Shown here piece by piece: positions 6,939 to 20,213 of a DNA stretch of 64,000 nucleotides; the first letter of the stretch is position 1; each line of letters begins with the position of its first letter. Source of the stretch: Ignavibacteriota bacterium (GTDB lineage Bacteria > Bacteroidota > Ignavibacteria > UBA10030 > UBA6906); the NCBI GenBank assembly GCA_963801355.1, contig CAWDEM010000004.1, forward strand, positions 1,472,001 to 1,536,000, given 5' to 3'. The notes beneath the pieces were generated by a model. It made no database searches. It was not told the origin of the DNA and saw nothing but the letters and a program-made list of their open reading frames with translations. A program made the position numbers and the translations under genes.

Positions 6939-7631
6939 ATGAATGTATACTGGGCCGCCGCCCTCGTGGTCGGACTTGCCGGATGCCAGAGCACAAGCGA
7001 GAAGCAGGTGAAACTCGAGACGCAGACTGACAAAGTCAGCTACAGCATCGGGCTGAACATAGGTCAAAATATGAAACGGGATTCCATCAAGATCAACCCG
7101 GATGTGCTGGTACGTGGCATCATGGACGCCTCGTTGGACAGTGCCAGCCGTCTCATGACGGACTCGCAGATGCAGGAAACCATGACTGCCTTCCAGAAGG
7201 ACATGCAGATGAAACAACAGGAGAATGCCCGGCTGGCCGGAGAAAAGAACCGTGTTGAAGGTGAGGCCTATCTGACCGCCAACAGCAAGAAGGAAGGCGT
7301 CATCACGCTGCCGAGCGGATTGCAGTACCGCATCCTGACAAAGGGGACCGGCAAAAAGCCGTCGGCAACCTCAACGGTGACGACGCACTACGTGGGCAAG
7401 CTGATCAACGGGACGGAATTCGACAGCTCGGTGAAGCGGGGAGAACCCGCGACATTCCCGGTGAACGGTGTTATCAGAGGATGGACCGAAGCCCTGCAGA
7501 TGATGCCGGTGGGTTCGAAATGGGAGCTCGTGATACCCCCGTCGCTGGGTTACGGCGACCAGGGGGCGGGCGGCGTCATTCCGCCCAGCGCGGTTCTGGT
7601 GTTCGAAGTGGAGCTGCTGGCAATCAAGTAG
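6939..7631 (+). CDS. FKBP-type peptidyl-prolyl isomerase (FklB/FkpA-like), probable lipoprotein
   Basis: GGAGG SD; lipobox LAGC; KVSYSIG, LPSGLQY, FDSS, VIRGWTEAL, LVFEVELL. Confidence 0.95.
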   Translation: MNVYWAAALVVGLAGCQSTSEKQVKLETQTDKVSYSIGLNIGQNMKRDSIKINPDVLVRGIMDASLDSASRLMTDSQMQETMTAFQKDMQMKQQENARLAGEKNRVEGEAYLTANSKKEGVITLPSGLQYRILTKGTGKKPSATSTVTTHYVGKLINGTEFDSSVKRGEPATFPVNGVIRGWTEALQMMPVGSKWELVIPPSLGYGDQGAGGVIPPSAVLVFEVELLAIK

Positions 7632-7665
7632 TGCCCCGGTTGTCCGGTGCAAGCGCAGGCATACG

Positions 7666-7710
7666 ATTGCCCATGATCCCCTCGGTACGGATCATGGGCA
7701 ATATTTTTTT
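7666..7710 (+). terminator. Rho-independent terminator
   Basis: 14-bp stem ATTGCCCATGATCC/GGATCATGGGCAAT followed by a T7 tract; lies between convergent genes. Confidence 0.9.
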
Positions 7711-7719
7711 GTGCCCCGA

Positions 7720-9102
7720 CTATCTTCTGTACCGCGAAATGAACTCCTCGACCTCCGGTATTCCTCCCTGGAAAATCAAGTAGCCGTTACTCGGCTCGCG
7801 CTCGGTGATCTCCCCGGCGATCGGGGTCATCATGATTTCCCGCACCTTCTGTACGTCATGAGTTTGTCCCAGTGCCCATCCCAGTTTGACGTAGGCAACC
7901 TCGGGCAGCATGTTCGCCCCGGGGACGACCCCTAATTCCATCATGTCGCGGCCGGTATCGTACACATACATCTGTACATACCCCCAGAGCGTTTGCACGG
8001 TCATATACACCGCAATCCCCTTCTCACGCGCGCGTTTCAACGACGGGTAGAGCGGCTTGTTGACATGTCCGAGGCCGGTGCCGGCGATAATGATGCCGCG
8101 GTAGTCATTATCGATCAGGGATTCGATGATATCCGGCTTCATGTTCGGATAGTAGTACACAATGCTGACCTTCTCTTCGAAGGCGGTGTTGACCACAACG
8201 TGCCGGTCTCTCCGGCGGCGTTTGTAGTCTCCCCGGAGAGGAGTAATCTTCTCGCGGCTGACCATTGCCAGGGGGATGTCACCGATGGTGCGAAATGTGG
8301 AACGATAACTCGAGTGCATTTTCCGGACCCGTGTACCACGGTGGAGAAGCCCGTAGTCGTCGGAGGTGGGTCCGAACATGCACACCATCGTTTCGGCGAT
8401 GTCGCTCTCGGCGGCGGTTTTCACGCTGTGCATCAGGTTCAGCGCGGCGTCCGACGACGGCCGGTCACTTGAACGTTGTGAGCCGACCATCACGATCGGC
8501 ACAGGCGACTCCTGCACCATGAAGGAGAGAATCGCCGCGGTGTGATGCATGGTGTCGGTACCGTGCCCGATGACGATGCCCTGAACTCCCTTTTCGATCT
8601 CCCGACCGATCGCCTGCGCTGTCCCGATCCATTGCTCGGGCCCCATGTTCTCGCTGAAAACTCCGTACAGCTTTTCGGTTTCGAGATTGCAGAGATCGGC
8701 GAGTTCGGGCACAGAGCCGTAGAGTTCTCCCGGTGAAAAGGCAGGGATGACCGCGCCCGTCCGATAATCCAGACGGCTCGCGATGGTCCCCCCCGTGCCA
8801 AGCAATTTCACGCGCGGCTTCTTGGGATCATACGGGAATTCCTTCTCGGGGATTTTGTAGTGGGCTTCCTTGCGCCCATGAACTGCGATGGCCTGCACGC
8901 TCCGTGCTGCGATACCGACATTGTACCCGCTCCGCAGTTTCAGCACGATGTGGTTCGCATCGGCAGTTTCCGAACGGGGGAGAACAATTCCCGTGAAAGA
9001 TCCGCGATCGGTCCGCACTTCTACGTCGCTCCAGACCTGGGCATTGTACTCCGTCAACGTGCTGAGGGCTTCACCGCGGTAGCCACGATAGTTGTCGTTC
9101 AT
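7720..9102 (-). CDS. gatD: Glu-tRNA(Gln) amidotransferase subunit D (archaeal-type)
   Basis: GatD N-domain (LKLRSGYNVGI) plus type I asparaginase motifs TGGTIASRLDYRTGAV, HGTDTM, SQRSSDRPSSD, RKMHSS, MLPEVAYVKL; ATGA overlap with gatE. Confidence 0.92.
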   Translation of the reverse strand: MNDNYRGYRGEALSTLTEYNAQVWSDVEVRTDRGSFTGIVLPRSETADANHIVLKLRSGYNVGIAARSVQAIAVHGRKEAHYKIPEKEFPYDPKKPRVKLLGTGGTIASRLDYRTGAVIPAFSPGELYGSVPELADLCNLETEKLYGVFSENMGPEQWIGTAQAIGREIEKGVQGIVIGHGTDTMHHTAAILSFMVQESPVPIVMVGSQRSSDRPSSDAALNLMHSVKTAAESDIAETMVCMFGPTSDDYGLLHRGTRVRKMHSSYRSTFRTIGDIPLAMVSREKITPLRGDYKRRRRDRHVVVNTAFEEKVSIVYYYPNMKPDIIESLIDNDYRGIIIAGTGLGHVNKPLYPSLKRAREKGIAVYMTVQTLWGYVQMYVYDTGRDMMELGVVPGANMLPEVAYVKLGWALGQTHDVQKVREIMMTPIAGEITEREPSNGYLIFQGGIPEVEEFISRYRR

Positions 9103-11015
9103 CGCCCGGCCTCCGGTGTCATCAGTCCGAGGTACTCTGCCACCGCGCGGCCCGGGATGCGTCCCCGGACCTGCCCCATGACGAGACCCATGAGCCGCCG
9201 CTTCGCATTGGCCGGGGAATGCAGCCTGATGGCCTGAAGGTCGGCGCTGCAACGACCGGCGATGGACTGGAGTTCGTCATGCGAACAGGGAGGGGGGAGG
9301 GCGTGGCGCACAAACTGTTTTCCCTGTGCCACGGCAAGAAGAGAGGGAAGAATGCCCTCCCTGGCGAGGGATTTCTCGTGGATTGCCAGGAGTACTTCCT
9401 GCATGGTTTCTACGGTGAATCCCTCCCGGTTGCCGGTTTTTTTCTTGATCCTTTTTGGAAACTGCACAAGAGTCTCGGCGGCGATCGCCGGAGCGACATT
9501 CCATTCTTTCACTGCGCGCGCGAACAGGCCGGCAAACGGCGAAGTGCTGAGCGGAACCACAAGATCCTCCGGGACACCGATGACATGGTACCATCGCTCC
9601 CGTTCCCAGTAAGGCGGAGGAATGTCCACCCGGAGTCGTTCCAGCCGTTCCTTCATGATGCGGAGGGGGGGAAGGTCCGTGTCGGGGTACATCCGGTCGG
9701 GGCCGGGGAGAATCCTCTCGAAGCCGTTGGTTCCGTCGCGAAGCGCCTGGCGCGTTTCTGACGGAATGCCGATGGTCGCCTCGCGCGCCCGGAGAGCGAT
9801 CTCAGAGGCCCCCAGGGCGGCGTCCTGTGGACTCCCCCAGACGGCCACCAGCGTGTCATCGTCAGTGGCCCCCATGCTTTTGCGCAGCGTGCGCCACTCT
9901 GAGGATGGGAGTGTTTCGCTCGGGCTGTCGGAGTGGATGATATTCGGCAATGTCGTCAGGCAGGCCACGACCCTGACGCGGTCGGAGATCTCACGTGAGA
10001 AGAATGTGTCGGTCTGTGTTTGCCAGCGCAGCAGTCCCTGAAAGCCCCTCAGGAGAACGCCCTGCACCACGAGTCCGTCGGCCACCGCATTTCTGATCGG
10101 CTGATAGCGGGTCTTGCGAAGGAGCTTTGTCACCACTTCGGTCCTTGCGTCGAAGGAATCCCGGGTGATGCCGCGCCGGTGGAGCTCATCTCTGAGGCGC
10201 AGAAGATTTCGCTGGCGCATTGCTTCGTTGTAGGTGAGCAGCGGGATGTCGGGAATGCGGGGAACACCCTTGATCTCGATGCGGGTTCCCCCCGTGATGC
10301 TCACATTCACATCCTGCCGGGCGGCGCCCCCGCCCGTACGGACCTTTGATGTGCTGCGGACGAGTCTTCTCAGAATTTCGGCAACCTCCGCGACTTCTTG
10401 AGGCGTCCGCATGTCCGGTGCGGTGACGGTCTCGATGAGAGGCATCCCGAGTCGATCCGTGAGATAGGTTCTGCGGTGCCCCACGTCGCTCACCTCCCGG
10501 CATGCATCCTCCTCAAGGCCGAGCTGCACAATGGTGATAGTGCGGTCCCGGAATGGAATCGATCCGTTGACACCCACGATAGTGGTCCGCTGGAATCCGG
10601 TGGGGATGCTTCCGTCGAGATACTGTTTCCTGGCGATGTGGATCTCATCGACCATAGAGCAACCGTAGAGCATTCCGATGCCGAGCGCAATGTCCAGTGC
10701 ATCATCGTTCAGCTCGAACGGCGGGGTGTCGTCCATCTCGTAGGTGCATACCGTGTCCCGATGGATCTGGTAGATGATCTCTTTCTTTGTCTTGAACTCC
10801 ATGAGTGCTGTGCCGTCGTATTCACCCAGTTCGGACAGCGTGGGCCGCATGTGACGCAGGATCTCCGCGTCAAAGTGATCGCTGTAGCGTGCGGCGGGGC
10901 ACCGGCAAAAGAGCTTCTTCGACGTCAGCAGTTGTTGATGGATTTCGAGACCGGATTTGAATCCGAGAGCGGCATAGTCGTTCCCGGTCATTTCGGAGAA
11001 GGGTTTCGTGGGCAT
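9099..11015 (-). CDS. gatE: Glu-tRNA(Gln) amidotransferase subunit E (archaeal-type)
   Basis: GLEIHQQL..KLFCRCP, RPTLSELGE, DGSIPTGFQRT, LEEDAC, DRLGMPLIE, RQDVNVSI..GG.RIEIKGV, RMYPDTD; 638 aa with central insertion; C-terminal LMGLVM..RGR. Confidence 0.92.
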   Translation of the reverse strand: MPTKPFSEMTGNDYAALGFKSGLEIHQQLLTSKKLFCRCPAARYSDHFDAEILRHMRPTLSELGEYDGTALMEFKTKKEIIYQIHRDTVCTYEMDDTPPFELNDDALDIALGIGMLYGCSMVDEIHIARKQYLDGSIPTGFQRTTIVGVNGSIPFRDRTITIVQLGLEEDACREVSDVGHRRTYLTDRLGMPLIETVTAPDMRTPQEVAEVAEILRRLVRSTSKVRTGGGAARQDVNVSITGGTRIEIKGVPRIPDIPLLTYNEAMRQRNLLRLRDELHRRGITRDSFDARTEVVTKLLRKTRYQPIRNAVADGLVVQGVLLRGFQGLLRWQTQTDTFFSREISDRVRVVACLTTLPNIIHSDSPSETLPSSEWRTLRKSMGATDDDTLVAVWGSPQDAALGASEIALRAREATIGIPSETRQALRDGTNGFERILPGPDRMYPDTDLPPLRIMKERLERLRVDIPPPYWERERWYHVIGVPEDLVVPLSTSPFAGLFARAVKEWNVAPAIAAETLVQFPKRIKKKTGNREGFTVETMQEVLLAIHEKSLAREGILPSLLAVAQGKQFVRHALPPPCSHDELQSIAGRCSADLQAIRLHSPANAKRRLMGLVMGQVRGRIPGRAVAEYLGLMTPEAGR

Positions 11016-12428: not shown

Positions 12429-15400
12429 TCACCAACGCAGCATGTGTACCACCTGAGCCAGAAGCACGAACTCCTGGTCCCCCGAGGATTTGTTGAGCAG
12501 GGTCGTCTGCAGACCTCGTTCGAGGGCCAGCGCTTTCTCCCGGTGTTTGTTGAACACCTCGAGTGACCACCTGGCGATGTCACTCGCGGGCTCTTTTCTT
12601 TTCCACTCTTCAAGCCTTGTCTGTGCCTCCCTCGTCTTCCCGGATGCGCGCAGTGCCAGTGCGCCGGCAAGTTTCGATGCACTTCCCGGCGTGCTTCGAT
12701 TGCGCGTGTACTTGCACACCTTCGAGAGGAGCACGGCAGAACCTTCTTGGTCCCCTTTCTGCTTCAGCAAGAAGGCTTCCAGGTAATCTTCGAGGCGCGT
12801 ATCGACGTCGTACGGCCTGCCCGCCCCGAGCCGCTCCGGCCACAAACGTGCCTGCCGCATCAGCGCGAGCGCTCCCTCGACGTCATTCTGAAGCGATTTC
12901 TGTGCAGCCAGGAGGATGCAGGCCTGGCGGTAAGCATCGTGCCCGTACCGGGCTCCCTCGAAGGGGAGGATTGTCAAGGTATCAAGAATTGCGTGACCGG
13001 CGCCATATTTCTCATTGAAGAGCAGTGTCCGCGCGAGGAGGAATTCCAGCACGTAGGAGTGCGGAAACCGTTCCACGGCGTGCTCGCAGACCCGCAAGGC
13101 TTCCACATACTGCCCCTGGGCGTTCAGGAATGTTGCCAGGGCGTTGTACGTACGCCATTCGCCGGGATCAACCTGCACCGCCTTTCGATAGTCCTGCAAC
13201 GCGCGTTGGGGTGCATCCGCCCAAAAACCTGCACGCGAAAGATAGAAGGGTCCGAAATCCGGCGTGTCTTCGCACGCGGCAAGCAACGTCCCGGCCTCCT
13301 CTTTTCTTCCCAGGCTCCACGCGAGGAGCGCGCGGTAGTACAGAATTTTCCAGTGATGTGCGCGCTGTTCTGCCCAGAGGAGAACCTCCCGGTCCTCCTG
13401 TCTGTGTGGAAAAACGAGTTGAGGGCTCGCAGCGAGCGCGCTGTCCAGCAGCTGTGCGCTCTTCTGGATCCGCCCGCTTCGTGATTCGAGGTAGGCACGC
13501 CAGAGAAGCACCATCGGGTGGTCAGGAGCCAGGGAAAGAATCTCCAGGGCATCCCCTGTCAGACCGAGCCTGGCGAAGTACGTGGCAAGTTCCAGAAAGG
13601 ATTCCTGGGGCAGTTCGTTGCGTATCATCCCGACAAAAGCATCGCGACTCTCCGGGGTCGGCGCCAGTCGGTATGCCACAAAACGCGCACAATGGTTCAA
13701 CGGATCAATGGCCAGAATGTCAGAGATGAATTCGCTCACGGCTGCGGAATCCCGGCGGTGTACGGCAGCAAGAGAACGCAGTTGCAGGGCCGGGATGTTG
13801 TCAGCACCGGCCCGGGAAGCGCGGAGTGCGAACTCCTCCGCATCATCCCATTGACCTTCGATGAATGCCATTTCGGCCAGCTGAAGATATGCGGCGGGAC
13901 GGTAGGCAGCCGAACGCGCGGCAATCCCGAACCCATCGCGGGCGTCGTACGGTTTCCCGAGGCTCCGCTGCGCCAGACCGTACAGGTAATTGCTCTCGGG
14001 ATCATAGGTGTCTACAGTGAGAGATCGCTTTGTGAAGGCCAGTGCCGAATCGTGATCCATCCTGCGAAGGTAAAGCTCGGCGGAACCCGAAAGCGCAGGC
14101 AGGAACTCCGGGTCTTTGTGCAAAGACGCCCGATATGACTCAAGCGCTCCCTTCGGATCGCGTTGGCGAACGCGCTCGCGGGCATCAACAGCCAAACCAT
14201 AAGCCGAATTCCAGTCAAAGGGTGTCTCCTCCTTCACCGGCCTCTCAAGAAGCCGCGCCGTATCGTCGCTGCTGCGGTAGTGAAGAAGGTTTCCGATGTG
14301 AATCTCAACATCGCCATCCGGCCTTCCGGCAACCACCGAATCCTGAACGACCTGTAGTGGCTGGAGCTCCACGGAACGCGAGAAGCATGGTTTGCCTTCG
14401 ATTGTCACCGTAATGACCTGCGTGGACTTTCCGGTAGGACAGAAGCCGAAGTGGAGCACACCGTTTGACGCGCGGACGTGCAGCACGCCGTCCGGCGTTG
14501 CCCGCGTGACGCCGCCGAGGTTTCTGAATGGGAACCATGTTTCATTGAAACGTTCGGAGGTCTGCGGGAGAAACGTCATATGCTTGAAAGGCGTCCTGCT
14601 GCTCTGCATCACCGCCTGATTGAAGTGGAGACCTGATTGGAGCTCGACATACTGGGTATTGCCCAGCGAGGAATCGGTGAGCAAACCCTTCCAGATTTCC
14701 CCTTCCCGTGAAAGTCCCCAGATCCATAGTTTCTTCCCTGGTTTGTCGGTATACCGGGACCAGTGGATGACGCCGAAATCATTCCAGCGTGCACCGAAAT
14801 AGTCGGTGAAGGCGCCCAGGACGTGGTACGATTTGTATGACCCGAACGCGTTGTTTTGATACCAGGAAAGATCCCTTCCCTGAGTGTCGACCGGCCATGG
14901 CGAAACCTCCCCGCCGTGGCTGATGTAGGTATTGCCCGGATAGATCAACTGGAGGGTCGAATCCGCGCCGGCCGCTGCGTTCATCCAATGATAGAGCGAG
15001 GTGCTCACCGCCGTGGGATTGTACCATAATGAACGTGTTTCCACCACGGCCCGGTCGGGCGGAAGCCGGATCTCCACGCGCCACTCCGTGCGCGAAGGAA
15101 GGTCAAGCGCTCCGACGATGCAGCTCACGCTTCCGTCGGCATTTGTGCGCGTGAGATAGTCCACGGGTGTGGCAGTCGCCGGAGTGTGTCCGATATCGCC
15201 GAAATTGAACTCGATCCCGCCGGATGTCCAGGGTCCGCGCATTGCGATTTCGCGGAACTTCATTACGCGGTTGTAATAAATGAACTCCCGTCCGGTGGAT
15301 TTTTCGAAGGCACCGAGAATCTTGCCCCCGATTTCCGGGGCGACAAGCACGCGGATGAACCGGTTCTCCAACGTGACAACCTTCCATGGACGATCCACCG

Positions 15401-15614
15401 GTGTCATGCTGTATCCCTGGTAACGGAAGTAGGGATAGATGTTGCTCATTCGTGCCACCGGATCCGGGTCGGAAAATGGATACGTGCGGAATGTCTGAAC
15501 GGTTTCAGAGATTGTCGCCCGCTGTGCCGGCGACTCGGCGCAGGGCCCCAGGAGCAGAAGCATTGCCGGGAGGATCAAGAAAAGACGAACATGTGATAGG
15601 GGCGACTGTTCCAT
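12429..15614 (-). CDS. DUF5107 domain + TPR protein
   Basis: LENRFIRVLVAPEIGGKI, GPWTSGGIEFNF, PGKKLWIWG, YVELQSG followed by a long TPR array; start uncertain. Confidence 0.85.
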   Translation of the reverse strand: MEQSPLSHVRLFLILPAMLLLLGPCAESPAQRATISETVQTFRTYPFSDPDPVARMSNIYPYFRYQGYSMTPVDRPWKVVTLENRFIRVLVAPEIGGKILGAFEKSTGREFIYYNRVMKFREIAMRGPWTSGGIEFNFGDIGHTPATATPVDYLTRTNADGSVSCIVGALDLPSRTEWRVEIRLPPDRAVVETRSLWYNPTAVSTSLYHWMNAAAGADSTLQLIYPGNTYISHGGEVSPWPVDTQGRDLSWYQNNAFGSYKSYHVLGAFTDYFGARWNDFGVIHWSRYTDKPGKKLWIWGLSREGEIWKGLLTDSSLGNTQYVELQSGLHFNQAVMQSSRTPFKHMTFLPQTSERFNETWFPFRNLGGVTRATPDGVLHVRASNGVLHFGFCPTGKSTQVITVTIEGKPCFSRSVELQPLQVVQDSVVAGRPDGDVEIHIGNLLHYRSSDDTARLLERPVKEETPFDWNSAYGLAVDARERVRQRDPKGALESYRASLHKDPEFLPALSGSAELYLRRMDHDSALAFTKRSLTVDTYDPESNYLYGLAQRSLGKPYDARDGFGIAARSAAYRPAAYLQLAEMAFIEGQWDDAEEFALRASRAGADNIPALQLRSLAAVHRRDSAAVSEFISDILAIDPLNHCARFVAYRLAPTPESRDAFVGMIRNELPQESFLELATYFARLGLTGDALEILSLAPDHPMVLLWRAYLESRSGRIQKSAQLLDSALAASPQLVFPHRQEDREVLLWAEQRAHHWKILYYRALLAWSLGRKEEAGTLLAACEDTPDFGPFYLSRAGFWADAPQRALQDYRKAVQVDPGEWRTYNALATFLNAQGQYVEALRVCEHAVERFPHSYVLEFLLARTLLFNEKYGAGHAILDTLTILPFEGARYGHDAYRQACILLAAQKSLQNDVEGALALMRQARLWPERLGAGRPYDVDTRLEDYLEAFLLKQKGDQEGSAVLLSKVCKYTRNRSTPGSASKLAGALALRASGKTREAQTRLEEWKRKEPASDIARWSLEVFNKHREKALALERGLQTTLLNKSSGDQEFVLLAQVVHMLRW

Positions 15615-15853
15615 TGGGCACTTGCCTGTTGTTGGGGTAGCTACCGAGATCCACCCTCCAGCGGGTGCGATGTGTATCGTCAACGGTGGGGAATTGACTT
15701 ATCATACGCAATATTCCCGATTTGTGAAAGAAGCAACGGACCGGTGACCGGCCCTTGTTCTTGATTATCCCGTTCATAAGCTGTACTCTTTCGAGAGCAT
15801 CAAGCCCGTCCTTCTCTCGGTCCGAACCGCAATCAGACATCGGAGCCGCCCCA

Positions 15854-18463
15854 ATGAATCTTCGTTATCTCCTTGTTGCACTGCTCATCGTCACGCATTC
15901 CGGGGGCATCGCAGAATCACAGATCACGCCTGGAATCCTCCAGCGCTTTCAGACACTTCAACCCGGAGCTGATTTTCTCACGTTCCCCGAGGACCGGGAG
16001 CATCCCATCCGGCTTCGCGACGAGATTCCCGATGCATGGGTGTCGCGGACAGCAGGTGAAATGCGTCGATTTGCCGGATCAACGCGGCCCGGCGAGTACT
16101 TTGTATTCCAGATCGGCGTACTCGCGCACCGGAGAGATCTTGACCGGCTCACCGCGACATGGGTCCCCCTGCGGGGTCCTCAAGTCATTCCAGAATCCGC
16201 CATCACCTGTTTCAATACACAGGGGAGGGACCATCGCGGAAGACTGTTCAGCAAGGTGCTGCGGGTTACGCGTTACCGTATCCAACCGCTCTGGTTCGGT
16301 GTGCAGGTGCCGGCGAATGCACATGGGGTGTACCGGACATCAATTACACTCAGCGCGGCCGGCGTCACATCCCGGGCTGTAGAAGTTGTTCTTCACGTTT
16401 CAGGGGACCCCGTGGTGAACAACGGTTTCGACTCCTCCAGAACGCTTTCGCGTCTGGCATGGCTCAATACCGCCGTCGGAGCGGATGACCGGTGTTCAAA
16501 AGGATACGAGCCGATCCGCCGCGATGCACGTGGGCTCCACATTCAGGGTCGCACAGTCACGCTCGGTCCGGATGGGCTCCCGGCTGCGATCACATCGTTC
16601 TTTGAACCCTCCAATCAGTTCCTCGTCAACAAAGGGACACAATTGCTCCGCGACCGGTTCCGCTTCATCGTTGAGAAGCAAGATGGTTCTTTCATGCGGC
16701 TGGTTCCGGGAGAGCTTCGTTTTCGACAGGAGACCCCTTCTACCGTCGCATGGGAAATCAAGAGCAGCAGTCCCGAATGCGATCTGTTCTGCCATGGTCA
16801 GATGGAATTCGACGGCTTTCTGGACTACGCACTCACCGTGAAGCCCAGAAAGGCCATGGTGGTGCGTGACATCCGGCTCGAAATCCCGATGAACAGGGAA
16901 TGCACCGGCTACATGATGGGCCTGAACCACGAAGGCGGACTCCGTGCCGGCGGGTGGGAATGGCACTGGGACACCACGAAGAATCAGGATATGCTCTGGA
17001 TCGGGGACGTGAACGCCGGATTGCGCATCAAATGGAAAGCCGAGAACTATGTACGGCCACTCATCAATCTCTACTACGGGTGGGGTCCATTGCGTCTCCC
17101 GCCCTCCTGGGACAATGCAGGCAACGGTGGAGTCAGCATCGCCGATTCCGGCACCACGACGTATGTCAGAGCATATTCCGCGCCCCGCAGACTTTCGGCG
17201 GGAGAGGAGCTGCATTTCGACTTCGAACTCCTTGTGACGCCGTTCCGGACGATCGACACGGGAGTGCGCTGGGGCGACCGGTATTTTCACGGAGGCGGCA
17301 CCAATGCATTCCGCAAGATTGCCATGGCCGACAGTGTCGGAGCAAACATCATCAACATCCACCATGCCGAAGATCTCTATCCGTTCATCAATTACCCGTA
17401 TCTCGACGAAAACGTGCCGGCTCTTCGCCTGCTGGCCGACAGTGCCCATCGGGCACACAAACGGTTGAAACTGTACTATACCACGCGTGAACTGACAAAG
17501 AATCTTCCGGAGTTCTGGGCCTTCAACAGTCTCAACGGCGAGATCATCTATCCCGGGCCGGCGAGCGCCTGTACGACTATCATTAATCCGAAAGGACCGG
17601 ATGAGTGGCTGAAGAAGAACCTCAAGGAGAACTACATCCCCGCGTGGCTGAATTGGATCAAGGAGGGGCCTTTCCAGGGTGAACTGGACCTGGCCGTGAT
17701 CACTACTCCCGACGGCAGGTTGAACAATTTCTACATCGGTGGTCTGGACTGGATGCTGGATCACCTCGGCATCGATGGCGTCTATATCGATGATTCCGCA
17801 CTCGACCGCGAGACCGTGCGGCGGGCCCGAAAGCTGATTGACCGGTATCGCCCGGAAGGCCGGATTGACTTCCACAGCTGGAATCATTTCAACGACAAGG
17901 CCGGTTTTACCAATTGCCTGAACCTGTACATGGACCTTCTCCCGTACATCGATCTTGTCTGGATAGGTGAGATGCGGGATTACAATCGGTTGCCGGATCA
18001 CTGGCTGATCGAAGTCTCCGGCATCCCGTTCGGTCTGACCGGGCAAATGCTGAATGGCGGAGGGAATCCCTGGAGGGGAATGGTGTACGGCATAACAAAC
18101 CGGCCGGGATGGGCGGGAGATCCGTCACAGCTCTGGAAATTCTGGGACGCATACGGCATCGCATCAAAAAGCATGGTGGGGTACTGGGACAACGAGAACC
18201 CCGTGAAGACAGGGAATAGTCTCGTCAAGGCCACACTGTACAAGGGAGTCGGACAGTGCATTATTGCTGTCGCGGGGTGGGGGGACCAGGATCTGTCCAG
18301 TGCGCTCACACTTGACTGGAAAACGATCGGCCTTGATCCGGCCAGGTGCACGGTGAGCATTCCTGCCATTCCCGGTTTTCAGGAAGGCCGGCACAATGTG
18401 ACACTCGGAGATCTGACGATACCGGCGGGAAAGGGATATCTGATTGTACTGGAGAAGAATTGA
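15854..18463 (+). CDS. Secreted putative glycoside hydrolase (DUF6067 / GH123-like)
   Basis: Signal peptide; [58 protein letters not shown]. Confidence 0.75.
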
Positions 18464-18521
18464 AAACGCCGTGCATTTTGTGTACTTTAAACAATTCGAT
18501 CACGCACACCTCCGGAGTATC

Positions 18522-20213
18522 ATGGCTGTCAACGAAAAAGCTGATTTCGTCCGCGAAATCGTCGCGGAGGACCTCCGCACGGGCAAGTATCAGGGTCGGG
18601 TGCACACGCGCTTCCCTCCCGAACCCAACGGCTATTTGCATATCGGCCACGCGAAGTCCATCAATCTCAACTATGGGATCGCGAAGGAGCATGCGGGGGG
18701 GATGTGCAACCTCCGCTTCGACGACACGAATCCGGAAAAAGAGGAACAGGAATATGTCGACTCCATCATCGAGGACGTGAAATGGATTGCGGGTGACATC
18801 GAGGAGAGGGTCTTCTACGCCTCGGACTACTTCGAACAGATGTATCAGTGGGCGGTTGACCTGGTCAAGAAGGGGAAGGCGTTCGTCTGCGATCTGACTG
18901 CGGACGAGATCCGCGAAACGCGCGGCACGCTCACGGAGCCCGGGAAAGAAAGTCCGTACCGCAACCGCACTGCGGACGAAAACCTGGACCTGTTCACCCG
19001 AATGCGGAACGGGGAATTTCCTGACGGTTCCCGCACGCTCCGGGCAAAGATTGACATGGCGTCGCCGAATATCAACCTTCGTGATCCGATCATGTACAGG
19101 ATCGTCCATGAGTCGCACCACCGCCAGGGGGATGCGTGGCCGATCTACCCCACCTATGATTGGGCGCACGGCCTTGAAGACTCGATCGAACGCATTACCC
19201 ACTCGATCTGCACGCTCGAGTTCGAAAACCACCGGCCTCTCTACGACTGGTATCTCGATGCCCTGGATGTCTACCACCCCCAGCAAATAGAGTTTGCGCG
19301 GTTGAACCTCAGCTATACGGTGTTGAGCAAACGGAGGCTGTTGCAGCTTGTCCAGGGGAAGTTCGTATCGGGATGGGACGACCCGCGCATGCCCACCATC
19401 GCCGGTTACAGGCGGCGGGGGTACACGGCGGAGTCTATCCGTACTTTTTGCGAGAAGATCGGCGTCTCCAAAAAGGACAGCATCATTGATGTTGCATTGC
19501 TGGAATGGAGTGTCCGTGAAGATTTGAACGCCCGTGCGCAGAGGGCGATGGCCGTGCTCAACCCGCTCAAGGTGATCATCACAAACTATCCTGCAGGCCG
19601 GACGGAAGAGCTTTCATCGCTCAACAATCCGGAGGATGAAGCAGCGGGCACGCGCACGGTGCCGTTCTCACGCGAGATCTATATCGAGCAGGAGGACTTC
19701 CGCGAGGTCCCGCCGCCAAAGTATCACAGACTCAGCCCCGGGAAAGAGGTGCGATTGCGGTCTGCATATATCATCAAGTGCGAAGAAGTCGTCAAGGACA
19801 ACGCGGGGAACGTCATCGAGCTCCACTGCACGTACGATCCTGAAACAAAGAGCGGGGCACCTTCGGCCAATCGCAAGGTGAAAGGGACACTCCACTGGGT
19901 TTCAGCCCCCCACGCCGCCGATGCCGAGGTGCGTCTGTACGACCGGCTGTTCGTCAAGCATGACCCCAATGAAGTTGCCGAATCGGAAAGCTTCCTGGTC
20001 AACCTCAATCCGGACTCGCTGAAGGTTCTGTCACGGTGCAAAGTCGAGCCAATGCTGGCGCATGCAGCGCCCGGGGCACGCTTCCAATTTGAACGGATGG
20101 GATATTTTTGTGTAGATGCGAAGGACTCCAGACCGGGTGCACCCGTGTTCAACAGGATCGTGACCCTGAAGGATACCTGGGCCCGGATCGAACAGAAAGG
20201 GAAAGCCGGTTGA
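18522..20213 (+). CDS. glnS: Glutamine--tRNA ligase
   Basis: [64 protein letters not shown]; no C-terminal YqeY extension. Confidence 0.97.

Follow-up and report, generated by a model that had tools for sequence, protein, structure and literature searches.

A GatDE amidotransferase operon in an Ignavibacteriota bacterium belongs to a diverse bacterial lineage of a textbook archaeal enzyme

Introduction

What is a gatE-gatD operon, a textbook signature of archaea, doing in a bacterium, and how did it come to be there? The question is raised by two adjoining genes on contig C4 of an Ignavibacteriota bacterium, in a 64,000-nucleotide stretch of DNA (C4:1472001-1536000) that is referred to here as the window. 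They encode GatE and GatD, the subunits of the GatDE amidotransferase, whose co-evolution with archaeal tRNA-Gln has been used to explain the absence of glutaminyl-tRNA synthetase (GlnRS) in archaea. GatDE is still described as archaea-only in reviews from 2022, and in one of these it is stated that no archaeon has GlnRS (PMC9499178).

An initial annotation, made from the DNA alone, had described a complete archaeal-type operon and proposed an old, ameliorated inter-domain transfer maintained by selection. The observation is confirmed by the analysis reported here, and the interpretation is partly supported. It was right in outline, too narrow in considering one locus of what is a widespread lineage, and too confident about a transfer that, like its direction, has to be reconstructed indirectly.

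We favour, with moderate confidence, the reading that the genes form a native and functional operon of a distinct bacterial GatDE lineage, acquired from archaea long ago and retained in the role of an auxiliary Glu-tRNA(Gln) amidotransferase. What makes the finding valuable is that it contradicts a textbook statement and that GatDE is paired, for no evident reason, with GlnRS.

Identity and anatomy of the operon

Both genes lie on the minus strand. The open reading frame of gatE (9099..11015, 638 amino acids) encodes the tRNA-dependent kinase/amidotransferase subunit, with a cradle domain, an AspRS-like insertion and a C-terminal tail. The asparaginase-type amidase subunit, with its GatD N-domain, is encoded by gatD (7720..9102, 460 amino acids); the open reading frame that contains it is listed as 7720-9252 on the same strand, and the internal ATG at 9102 is taken as the start. 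The TGA stop codon of gatE and the ATG start codon of gatD overlap in an ATGA at 9099..9102 on the minus strand, which can be read directly in the sequence. The earlier description of the pair as complete and coupled is accurate.

Family models separate both proteins clearly from their bacterial paralogues. GatE scored 518.2 bits against NF003107 (cut-off 456) and 438.5 bits against TIGR00134 (cut-off 319.55), and failed every GatB cut-off, the best GatB model reaching 128.4 bits against a cut-off of 338; the GatB-model match (<=128 bits) covers residues 99-283. GatD scored 520 bits against NF003217 (cut-off 310) and 515.7 bits against TIGR02153 (cut-off 324). Its Pfam matches comprise GatD_N (PF18195), Asparaginase (PF00710) and Asparaginase_C (PF17763). 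The core of GatD thus resembles type I L-asparaginase (AnsA), sharing the two asparaginase domains and matching the subfamily model TIGR00519 at 386.7 bits, but the protein differs from AnsA in its N-terminal domain, in its higher scores against the GatD equivalog models and in the overlap of its gene with gatE.

Solved structures give the same result. Residues 13-628 of GatE align to the GatE chains 1ZQ1_C (312 bits) and 2D6F_C (309 bits), while GatB chains score at most 80 bits. GatD aligns to 1ZQ1_A (401 bits) and 2D6F_A (399 bits), and to any solved asparaginase at no more than 140 bits. The central insertion of GatE, which had been noted earlier, is seen in the Pfam match to GatB_N, whose 277 profile positions are stretched across residues 21-458. 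The insertion region aligns with 1ZQ1_C and 2D6F_C, and the GAD domain (PF02938) is among the precomputed matches of some close homologues. Residues from about 470 to 628 align with the tails of solved GatE proteins; the protein's own match to the YqeY-like tail PF02637 is absent at E <= 0.001, and this family is precomputed for many GatE homologues.

The catalytic anatomy is conserved as well. His26, Glu168 and Glu195 of GatE align with His15, Glu157 and Glu184 of Methanothermobacter thermautotrophicus GatE, magnesium ligands whose mutation is reported to abolish activity (PMC2330236), and the corresponding columns are invariant in two sets of deep members of the bacterial GatE clade, of 15 and 16 proteins. 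GatD is described as having a Thr nucleophile and the Thr-Lys-Asp triad of asparaginases (PMC2330236). Judged by motif stretches, not residue numbering, this triad is kept: the TGGT, HGTDT and RKMH stretches are those of Pyrococcus abyssi GatD, and in the printed alignment the longer stretches GTGGTIASR, HGTDTM and VRKMH are identical or nearly so. All the motifs quoted in the initial annotation are present in the translations, namely KLRSGYNVG, TGGT and HGTDT in GatD and RPTLSELGE and RQDVNVSI in GatE.

The genes are therefore confirmed by equivalog scores and structural alignments as true gatD and gatE, and their products group with neither GatB nor AnsA. Compared with archaeal GatDE (M. thermautotrophicus, 2D6F; P. 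abyssi, 1ZQ1), the window proteins form the same two subunits, with the same domain order and gene pairing, full-length alignments, and the GatE magnesium ligands and GatD Thr/Asp/Lys motifs retained. In contrast, their identity to archaeal GatE representatives is only 31-40%, and the latter fall outside the clade of the window GatE. Bacterial GatCAB catalyses the same overall reaction, and GatE and GatB are paralogues with a common cradle domain, but GatB is without the insertion domain of GatE, and the amidase of GatCAB consists of GatA and GatC instead of an asparaginase-type GatD.

Conservation of this anatomy favours the known chemistry, in which GatD would free ammonia from glutamine or asparagine, and GatE, with ATP and magnesium, would phosphorylate the side-chain carboxyl of the glutamate carried by tRNA-Gln and amidate it to give Gln-tRNA-Gln. 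The genomic setting is at odds with the archaeal role.

At four positions of GatE, T69, T91, D96 and C352, the bacterial and archaeal clades are fixed for different residues. At C352, Cys is found in 61 of 62 bacterial-clade rows and Gly in 28 of 33 archaeal ones. Cysteines at C37, C39 and C90 are nearly invariant in both, and the addition of C352 may complete a metal site in the bacterial lineage alone. A promoter and terminator scan found no sigma-70-like site, and the terminator-like sites fall within coding sequence.

Distribution of bacterial GatDE

GatE scores above cut-off in 14 of 61 related genomes, including all five of the genus. The class was also sampled evenly with 201 genomes, of which 200 are >=90% complete and <=5% contaminated; GatE was matched in 44 of the 201, and in 43 of these above cut-off. 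Its occurrence is strongly dependent on family: it was found in 18 of 19 genomes of family f13, 8 of 13 of f23, 7 of 17 of f22 and both genomes of f25, and in none of those sampled from f11 (19), f14 (24), f17 (16) and f26 (13). At E <= 1e-60 the GatE model matched four of four archaeal control genomes and none of ten bacterial ones. In two further related genomes, gatE is split across two adjacent frames (G007, C8:37586-39446, model positions 3-262 and 261-621; G017, C87:13-1618, model positions 39-260 and 305-620). Such splits suggest copies that are frameshifted or in decay, or errors of sequencing.

Beyond the class, at least 572 relatives turned up when prokaryotes were scanned at one genome per species. 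The best 80 are all metagenome-assembled genomes with bacterial labels, mostly Ignavibacteria/Bacteroidota and Aminicenantes/Acidobacteriota, at 61-78% identity. The closest relatives overall are bacterial, at 61-92% identity, with archaeal GatE at or below 40%. Profile searches with deeper members added rows labelled Zixibacteria, KSB1, Calditrichia, Krumholzibacteria and Aminicenantes. Both NCBI and JGI already call these bacterial proteins GatE.

Bacterial GatDE is a large and diverse clade over several phyla, not a one-off. The window genes, genuine as they are, do not stand alone among bacteria. With GatE in 44 of 201 genomes of one class and in metagenome-assembled genomes labelled as several other bacterial phyla, GatDE is not restricted to Archaea, as an archaeal signature protein would be, and that label does not hold. 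Full-text literature searches, whose coverage leaves out most subscription journals, found no paper describing bacterial GatDE, and the word GatDE does not occur in the main text of a survey published in 2014 that covered GluRS, GlnRS and GatCAB across 366 bacterial genomes (PMC3927822).

The gene pairing is conserved across this range. Of 89 loci, 72 have gatD directly after gatE in the same orientation; crude open reading frame calling left the other 17 unsettled. By the same crude calling, the genes overlap by -4 in 18 and by -1 in 12 of the 72 loci in which both were called. No neighbour other than gatD is conserved, the next-largest protein cluster occurring in 10 of the 89 loci. A dedicated tRNA beside the operon was considered and ruled out, as aragorn found no tRNA gene near it in 88 related loci.

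Association with GlnRS and GatB

The window genes are found in a bacterial translation background. The host has bacterial-type GluRS (513 bits, single copy, C8:923748-925145), GatB (566.5 bits), GatA (619.6 bits), AsnRS (492.2 bits) and AspRS (757.9 bits), and a glutamine synthetase; its GatB and GatA are separate proteins encoded elsewhere in the genome. GlnRS is encoded within the window itself by glnS (18444..20213, plus strand), which matches TIGR00440 at 723.5 bits (cut-off 425.8) over 18600-20183, that is, C4:1490600-1492183. Lying 7.6 kb from gatE, glnS is loosely linked context outside the operon.

Across the class sample, cross-tabulated by hand, GlnRS is present in 42 of 44 genomes with GatE, compared with 62 of 157 without it. 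GatE, in turn, is present in 17 of 25 genomes that lack GatB and in 27 of 176 that have it; five of the GatB-less genomes were confirmed to contain only the cross-match of GatE to the GatB model. These counts overstate the case, as related genomes are not independent. Family f23 falls into two states: five genomes have GatB and neither GlnRS nor GatE, and eight have GlnRS and GatE, seven of these without GatB. The three Aminicenantes genomes G249-G251 have GlnRS and GatDE and no GatB. A complete chromosome (G252) has GatDE and GatB without GlnRS.

Recurring in several families and a second phylum, the pattern is most simply read as that of an auxiliary Glu-specific amidotransferase able to persist after the loss of GatCAB.

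The distance from glnS to gatE is 1.4-1.8 kb in G031, G032 and G004, and over genera g1, g28 and g29 it runs from 1.4 to 7.6 kb; a GlnRS homologue is found within the retrieved flanks of 4 of 88 other gatED loci (L027, L029, L030 and L086). The GluRS gene, gltX, is directly beside glnS in most of the GlnRS-bearing genomes examined, for example G083, G126, G166, G204, G212, G219, G068 and G202, and genomes of families f13, f30, f25 and f12 have two GluRS copies.

Function of bacterial GatDE

An archaeal enzyme simply transplanted into a bacterium would not account for this setting. Archaeal GatDE works in hosts without GlnRS, and this host has GlnRS and a bacterial-type GluRS, besides AsnRS, GatCAB and a tRNA-Gln that lacks A1:U72, features that the initial annotation had not taken into account. 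Since GlnRS is present, GatDE would not be the main route to Gln-tRNA-Gln in the host. Instead, it probably serves as an auxiliary or clean-up Glu-tRNA-Gln amidotransferase, able to stand in for Glu-specific GatCAB activity.

Several observations, from tRNA identity, synthetase residues, enzyme distribution and phylogeny, weigh against the reading as a whole; those on phylogeny are taken up with the origin of the lineage. Both tRNA-Gln genes of the host carry U1:A72 and G73. Archaeal GatDE is reported to read A1:U72 of tRNA-Gln (PMC2330236, PMC9499178), whereas U1:A72, the pair found on the host tRNA-Gln, is that read by bacterial GatCAB. The missing determinant bears on how the enzyme would work, not on its homology, and an auxiliary role would need recognition re-tuned to the bacterial U1:A72 tRNA-Gln. 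The sole GluRS of the host has Arg at the equivalent of Thermus thermophilus Arg358, a marker of discriminating GluRS, leaving no obvious supply of substrate. GatE is found in only 2 of 97 GlnRS-less genomes, so that GatDE is almost never the sole route and is no substitute for GatCAB in genomes that cannot do without an amidotransferase. Finally, six GlnRS-bearing genomes have neither GatB nor GatE, which indicates that no amidotransferase is strictly needed beside GlnRS.

The GluRS argument is itself a weak one, because the Arg358 marker is reported to be phylum-specific (PMC3927822). Among 31 genomes, with one GluRS copy considered in each, the residue is Arg in 20 and Tyr in 11. Within family f23 it is Tyr in all four GlnRS-less genomes and Arg in five of six with GlnRS and GatE, but the GlnRS-less genomes G065 and G084 also have Arg. 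On the idea that a non-discriminating GluRS accounts for GatDE, the marker was therefore uninformative. The D-loop offers a point in favour of GatDE acting on the host tRNA: it is 7 bases long in host tRNA-Gln and 9 in host tRNA-Glu, which fits the rule that GatDE discriminates between tRNAs by the D-loop (PMC2330236).

A physiological need for the enzyme is harder to identify. In bacteria such as Thermus, Deinococcus and Bdellovibrio, the route through GatCAB and a non-discriminating AspRS supplies asparagine. These genera keep GatCAB beside both GlnRS and AsnRS and so offer a precedent for the extra amidotransferase of the host, one that concerns GatCAB working with a non-discriminating AspRS (PMC4206432). 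Here, in contrast, it is GatDE that is the additional amidotransferase. AsnB-type genes are present in most of these GatDE-bearing genomes and glutamine synthetase in the host, so no comparable need was found. More generally, a need for tRNA-dependent synthesis of asparagine or glutamine was looked for among AsnRS, glutamine synthetase and AsnB-type genes and was not found. As the sole source of glutamine, GatDE is ruled out by the glutamine synthetase; as a required Asp-tRNA-Asn amidotransferase, it was rejected given the presence of AsnRS and of AsnB-type genes in 10 of 12 genomes with GatE and without GatB. Even in family f13, where AsnRS seemed absent at E <= 1e-90, the gene is present with its match split by an insert (461-484 bits summed). 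In families f13 and f30 the match of AsnRS to the model falls into two parts of a single reading frame (G064:C29:50133-51611, G076:C1:125717-127168, G119:C22:23593-25065 and G197:C169:506-1993), which suggests that the enzyme contains an insertion.

The strongest rival explanation is that bacterial GatDE has taken on a new job, with another substrate such as Asp-tRNA-Asn or a new partnership with GlnRS. GlnRS is a bacterial relative of the archaeal-type GluRS, which GatDE binds in archaea. This explanation would accord with the excess of GlnRS among GatE-bearing genomes, with the exact coincidence of GatE-bearing and GlnRS-bearing genomes in family f23, with the Aminicenantes genomes that combine GlnRS and GatDE without GatB, and with the proximity of glnS to gatE in genera g1, g28 and g29. 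It would likewise accord with the absence of A1:U72 from the host tRNA-Gln and with the four GatE positions at which bacteria and archaea differ. Archaeal GatDE, moreover, is reported to bind its GluRS without tRNA, possibly through the insertion domain of GatE (PMC2943598). However, the catalytic residues and, by alignment, all domains are kept as in archaeal GatDE, an Asp-tRNA-Asn role is not required in genomes equipped with AsnRS and, for the most part, AsnB-type genes, the chromosome of G252 has GatDE beside GatB and no GlnRS, and the association with GlnRS may in part reflect the relatedness of the genomes. On balance we regard a new job as unlikely.

A bolder reading can be put forward tentatively. 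Bacterial GatDE may be a separate ancient lineage re-tuned to U1:A72 and functionally tied to the GlnRS/GluRS module, acting either as a Glu-specific amidotransferase that let lineages discard GatCAB, or, together with GlnRS, as part of a bacterial equivalent of the archaeal transamidosome. With such a lineage GatDE would be no archaeal signature, and Bacteria would have a third way of organising Gln-tRNA-Gln synthesis.

Should bacterial GatDE indeed work beside GlnRS with a U1:A72 tRNA-Gln, as the auxiliary role would entail, its status as an archaeal signature would be removed, and its spread would amount to a natural experiment on the co-evolution of amidotransferases and tRNA identity. It would also add a further case to the question of why indirect aminoacylation persists beside direct routes.

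Origin of the lineage

A search for GatE among 1.84 billion cluster representatives returned 667 matches at E <= 1e-30, with a gap between rows at 42-59% identity and rows at or below 40%. Three trees were made: FastTree with 192 rows, IQ-TREE LG+G4 with 96 rows, and IQ-TREE LG+C20+F+G4 with posterior mean site frequencies (PMSF) and 57 rows. All were rooted on the host's own GatB, which is one long branch, and their archaeal rows were limited to the best 150 matches of a bacterial query; support is that of the Shimodaira-Hasegawa-like approximate likelihood ratio test (SH-aLRT) from short searches.

Every row with a bacterial label belongs to a single clade, supported at 97 (FastTree), 99 (LG+G4) and 100 (LG+C20 PMSF), and one origin of this clade is well supported. 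The stem of the clade measures 0.26-0.39 changes per column, and the median end branches 0.55-0.66. Beyond the Ignavibacteria/Aminicenantes crown, the clade comprises around 30 representatives (50% identity level) of full length. Of two sets of 10 clusters looked up, one and two clusters, respectively, carried an organism name; the archaeal-named rows obtained outside the bacterial clade are one each of Heimdallarchaeota, Aenigmarchaeota and ‘archaeon’, and the best-scoring archaeal match, at 40% identity, is named Heimdallarchaeota.

The Aminicenantes rows nest among those of Ignavibacteria at 62-69% identity, and in the FastTree analysis the GatE of family f1 genomes falls into two different subclades. 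Both patterns point to transfer among bacteria alongside descent.

It is most likely that the lineage entered Bacteria once, long ago, from an archaeal source. It would then have diversified in phyla of the FCB (Fibrobacterota-Chlorobiota-Bacteroidota) group, passed later to Aminicenantes, and been lost repeatedly. The old inter-domain transfer proposed initially stands as the most economical reading. Neither a donor nor a direction follows from the trees, in which the archaeal rows, as four lineages, join the bacterial clade at a basal polytomy. The second phylogenetic counterpoint comes from three rows that bear the labels Thermoplasmata or Thermoplasmatota and fall within the bacterial clade, where they group with a Bacteroidetes-labelled row (support 100). 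One member lies on a 5.16 Mb contig, and the entry for the Atlas cluster of this protein is ‘Archaea 62%, commonest Candidatus Fermentibacterota’. We regard these labels as probably unreliable.

Could the bacterial lineage instead have been inherited vertically, from an ancestor that had both amidotransferases before the domains split, and then lost in most bacteria? The clade is nested with support in no sampled archaeal lineage, and it is deep and diverse outside the crown, which speaks for such a history. Its labelled members, however, come only from FCB-group phyla and Aminicenantes, GatE is absent from the ten bacterial control genomes and patchy even within one class, and the stem of the clade is shorter than its median end branches. 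The position of Aminicenantes inside Ignavibacteria points, moreover, to transfer between phyla. Vertical descent is, on this evidence, improbable, and acquisition from archaea is preferred.

Nativeness of the locus

The operon is internal to a contig of 1,657,278 bases, in a 4.8 Mb genome of 8 contigs rated 100% complete with 0.14% contamination, whose GluRS, GatA, GatB and GlnRS bear out the earlier statement that the host is bacterial. By Pfam, the flanking genes encode an RRM protein, a DEAD-box helicase, an FkpA-type FKBP, a CBS protein, a TPR protein and a DUF5107/TPR protein, and no mobile-element family is among their matches. Guanine-cytosine content is 0.58-0.61 at the locus and 0.54-0.61 elsewhere in the window. 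The absence of mobile elements and of a compositional break, noted from the beginning, is thus upheld for the flanks.

The neighbourhood is also found in other genomes. Helicase and FKBP genes on the gatD side recur in two other loci, and CBS and TPR genes on the gatE side in four, from independently assembled genomes. Two junctions are bridged by short contigs of relatives, 95-98% alike, in other public metagenomes: that from the FKBP end into gatD (7334-8415) and that from the start of gatE into the upstream spacer. This metagenomic support is modest, as no piece covers the whole stretch and no sequencing run contained more than 18% of the sampled locus words. None of the runs listed with such words was an RNA data set.

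Codon usage and substitution rates agree with long residence. In synonymous codon-usage distance from the genome mean, over 1552 long open reading frames, gatE lies at the 42nd and gatD at the 37th percentile. In comparisons with five relatives, the ratio of non-synonymous to synonymous substitution (dN/dS; Nei-Gojobori) of gatE ranges over 0.084-0.096 and that of gatD over 0.028-0.077, with dS at 0.47 (gatE) and 0.39 (gatD) in the closest pair and saturated in more distant ones. The locus is real, native, ameliorated and under purifying selection, as had been supposed for its amelioration and maintenance.

With the genes present throughout the genus, codon usage typical of the genome, bridging contigs and common flanks, a chimeric contig is very unlikely. 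The suspicion that archaeal DNA ended up in this bacterial genome through misassembly or misbinning, which could appeal to the 8-contig and possibly metagenomic assembly and to the low coverage of locus words in sequencing runs, can be dismissed as extremely improbable for a locus internal to a 1.66 Mb contig, with both flanks common to independently assembled genomes, genes in all five genomes of the genus and nearest relatives that are bacterial (61-92% identity, against <=40% for archaeal GatE).

Other features of the window and host genome

The DUF5107/TPR protein mentioned above is encoded on the minus strand at 12429-15683, 1.4 kb upstream of gatE, and combines an N-terminal DUF5107 domain (382 bits) with many TPR repeats in 1084 amino acids. 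Elsewhere in the host genome, the only AsnB-type asparagine synthetase match (C8:243475-245173) is split over two frames, at model positions 1-134 and 133-517, and may be a frameshift or a pseudogene. The sole tRNA-Asn gene (anticodon GTT; contig C8, 396234-396308, minus strand) was missed by aragorn at its default setting and found at a relaxed threshold, which rules out that the host lacks this tRNA. A tRNA-SeC gene is located at C4:1340667-1340765.

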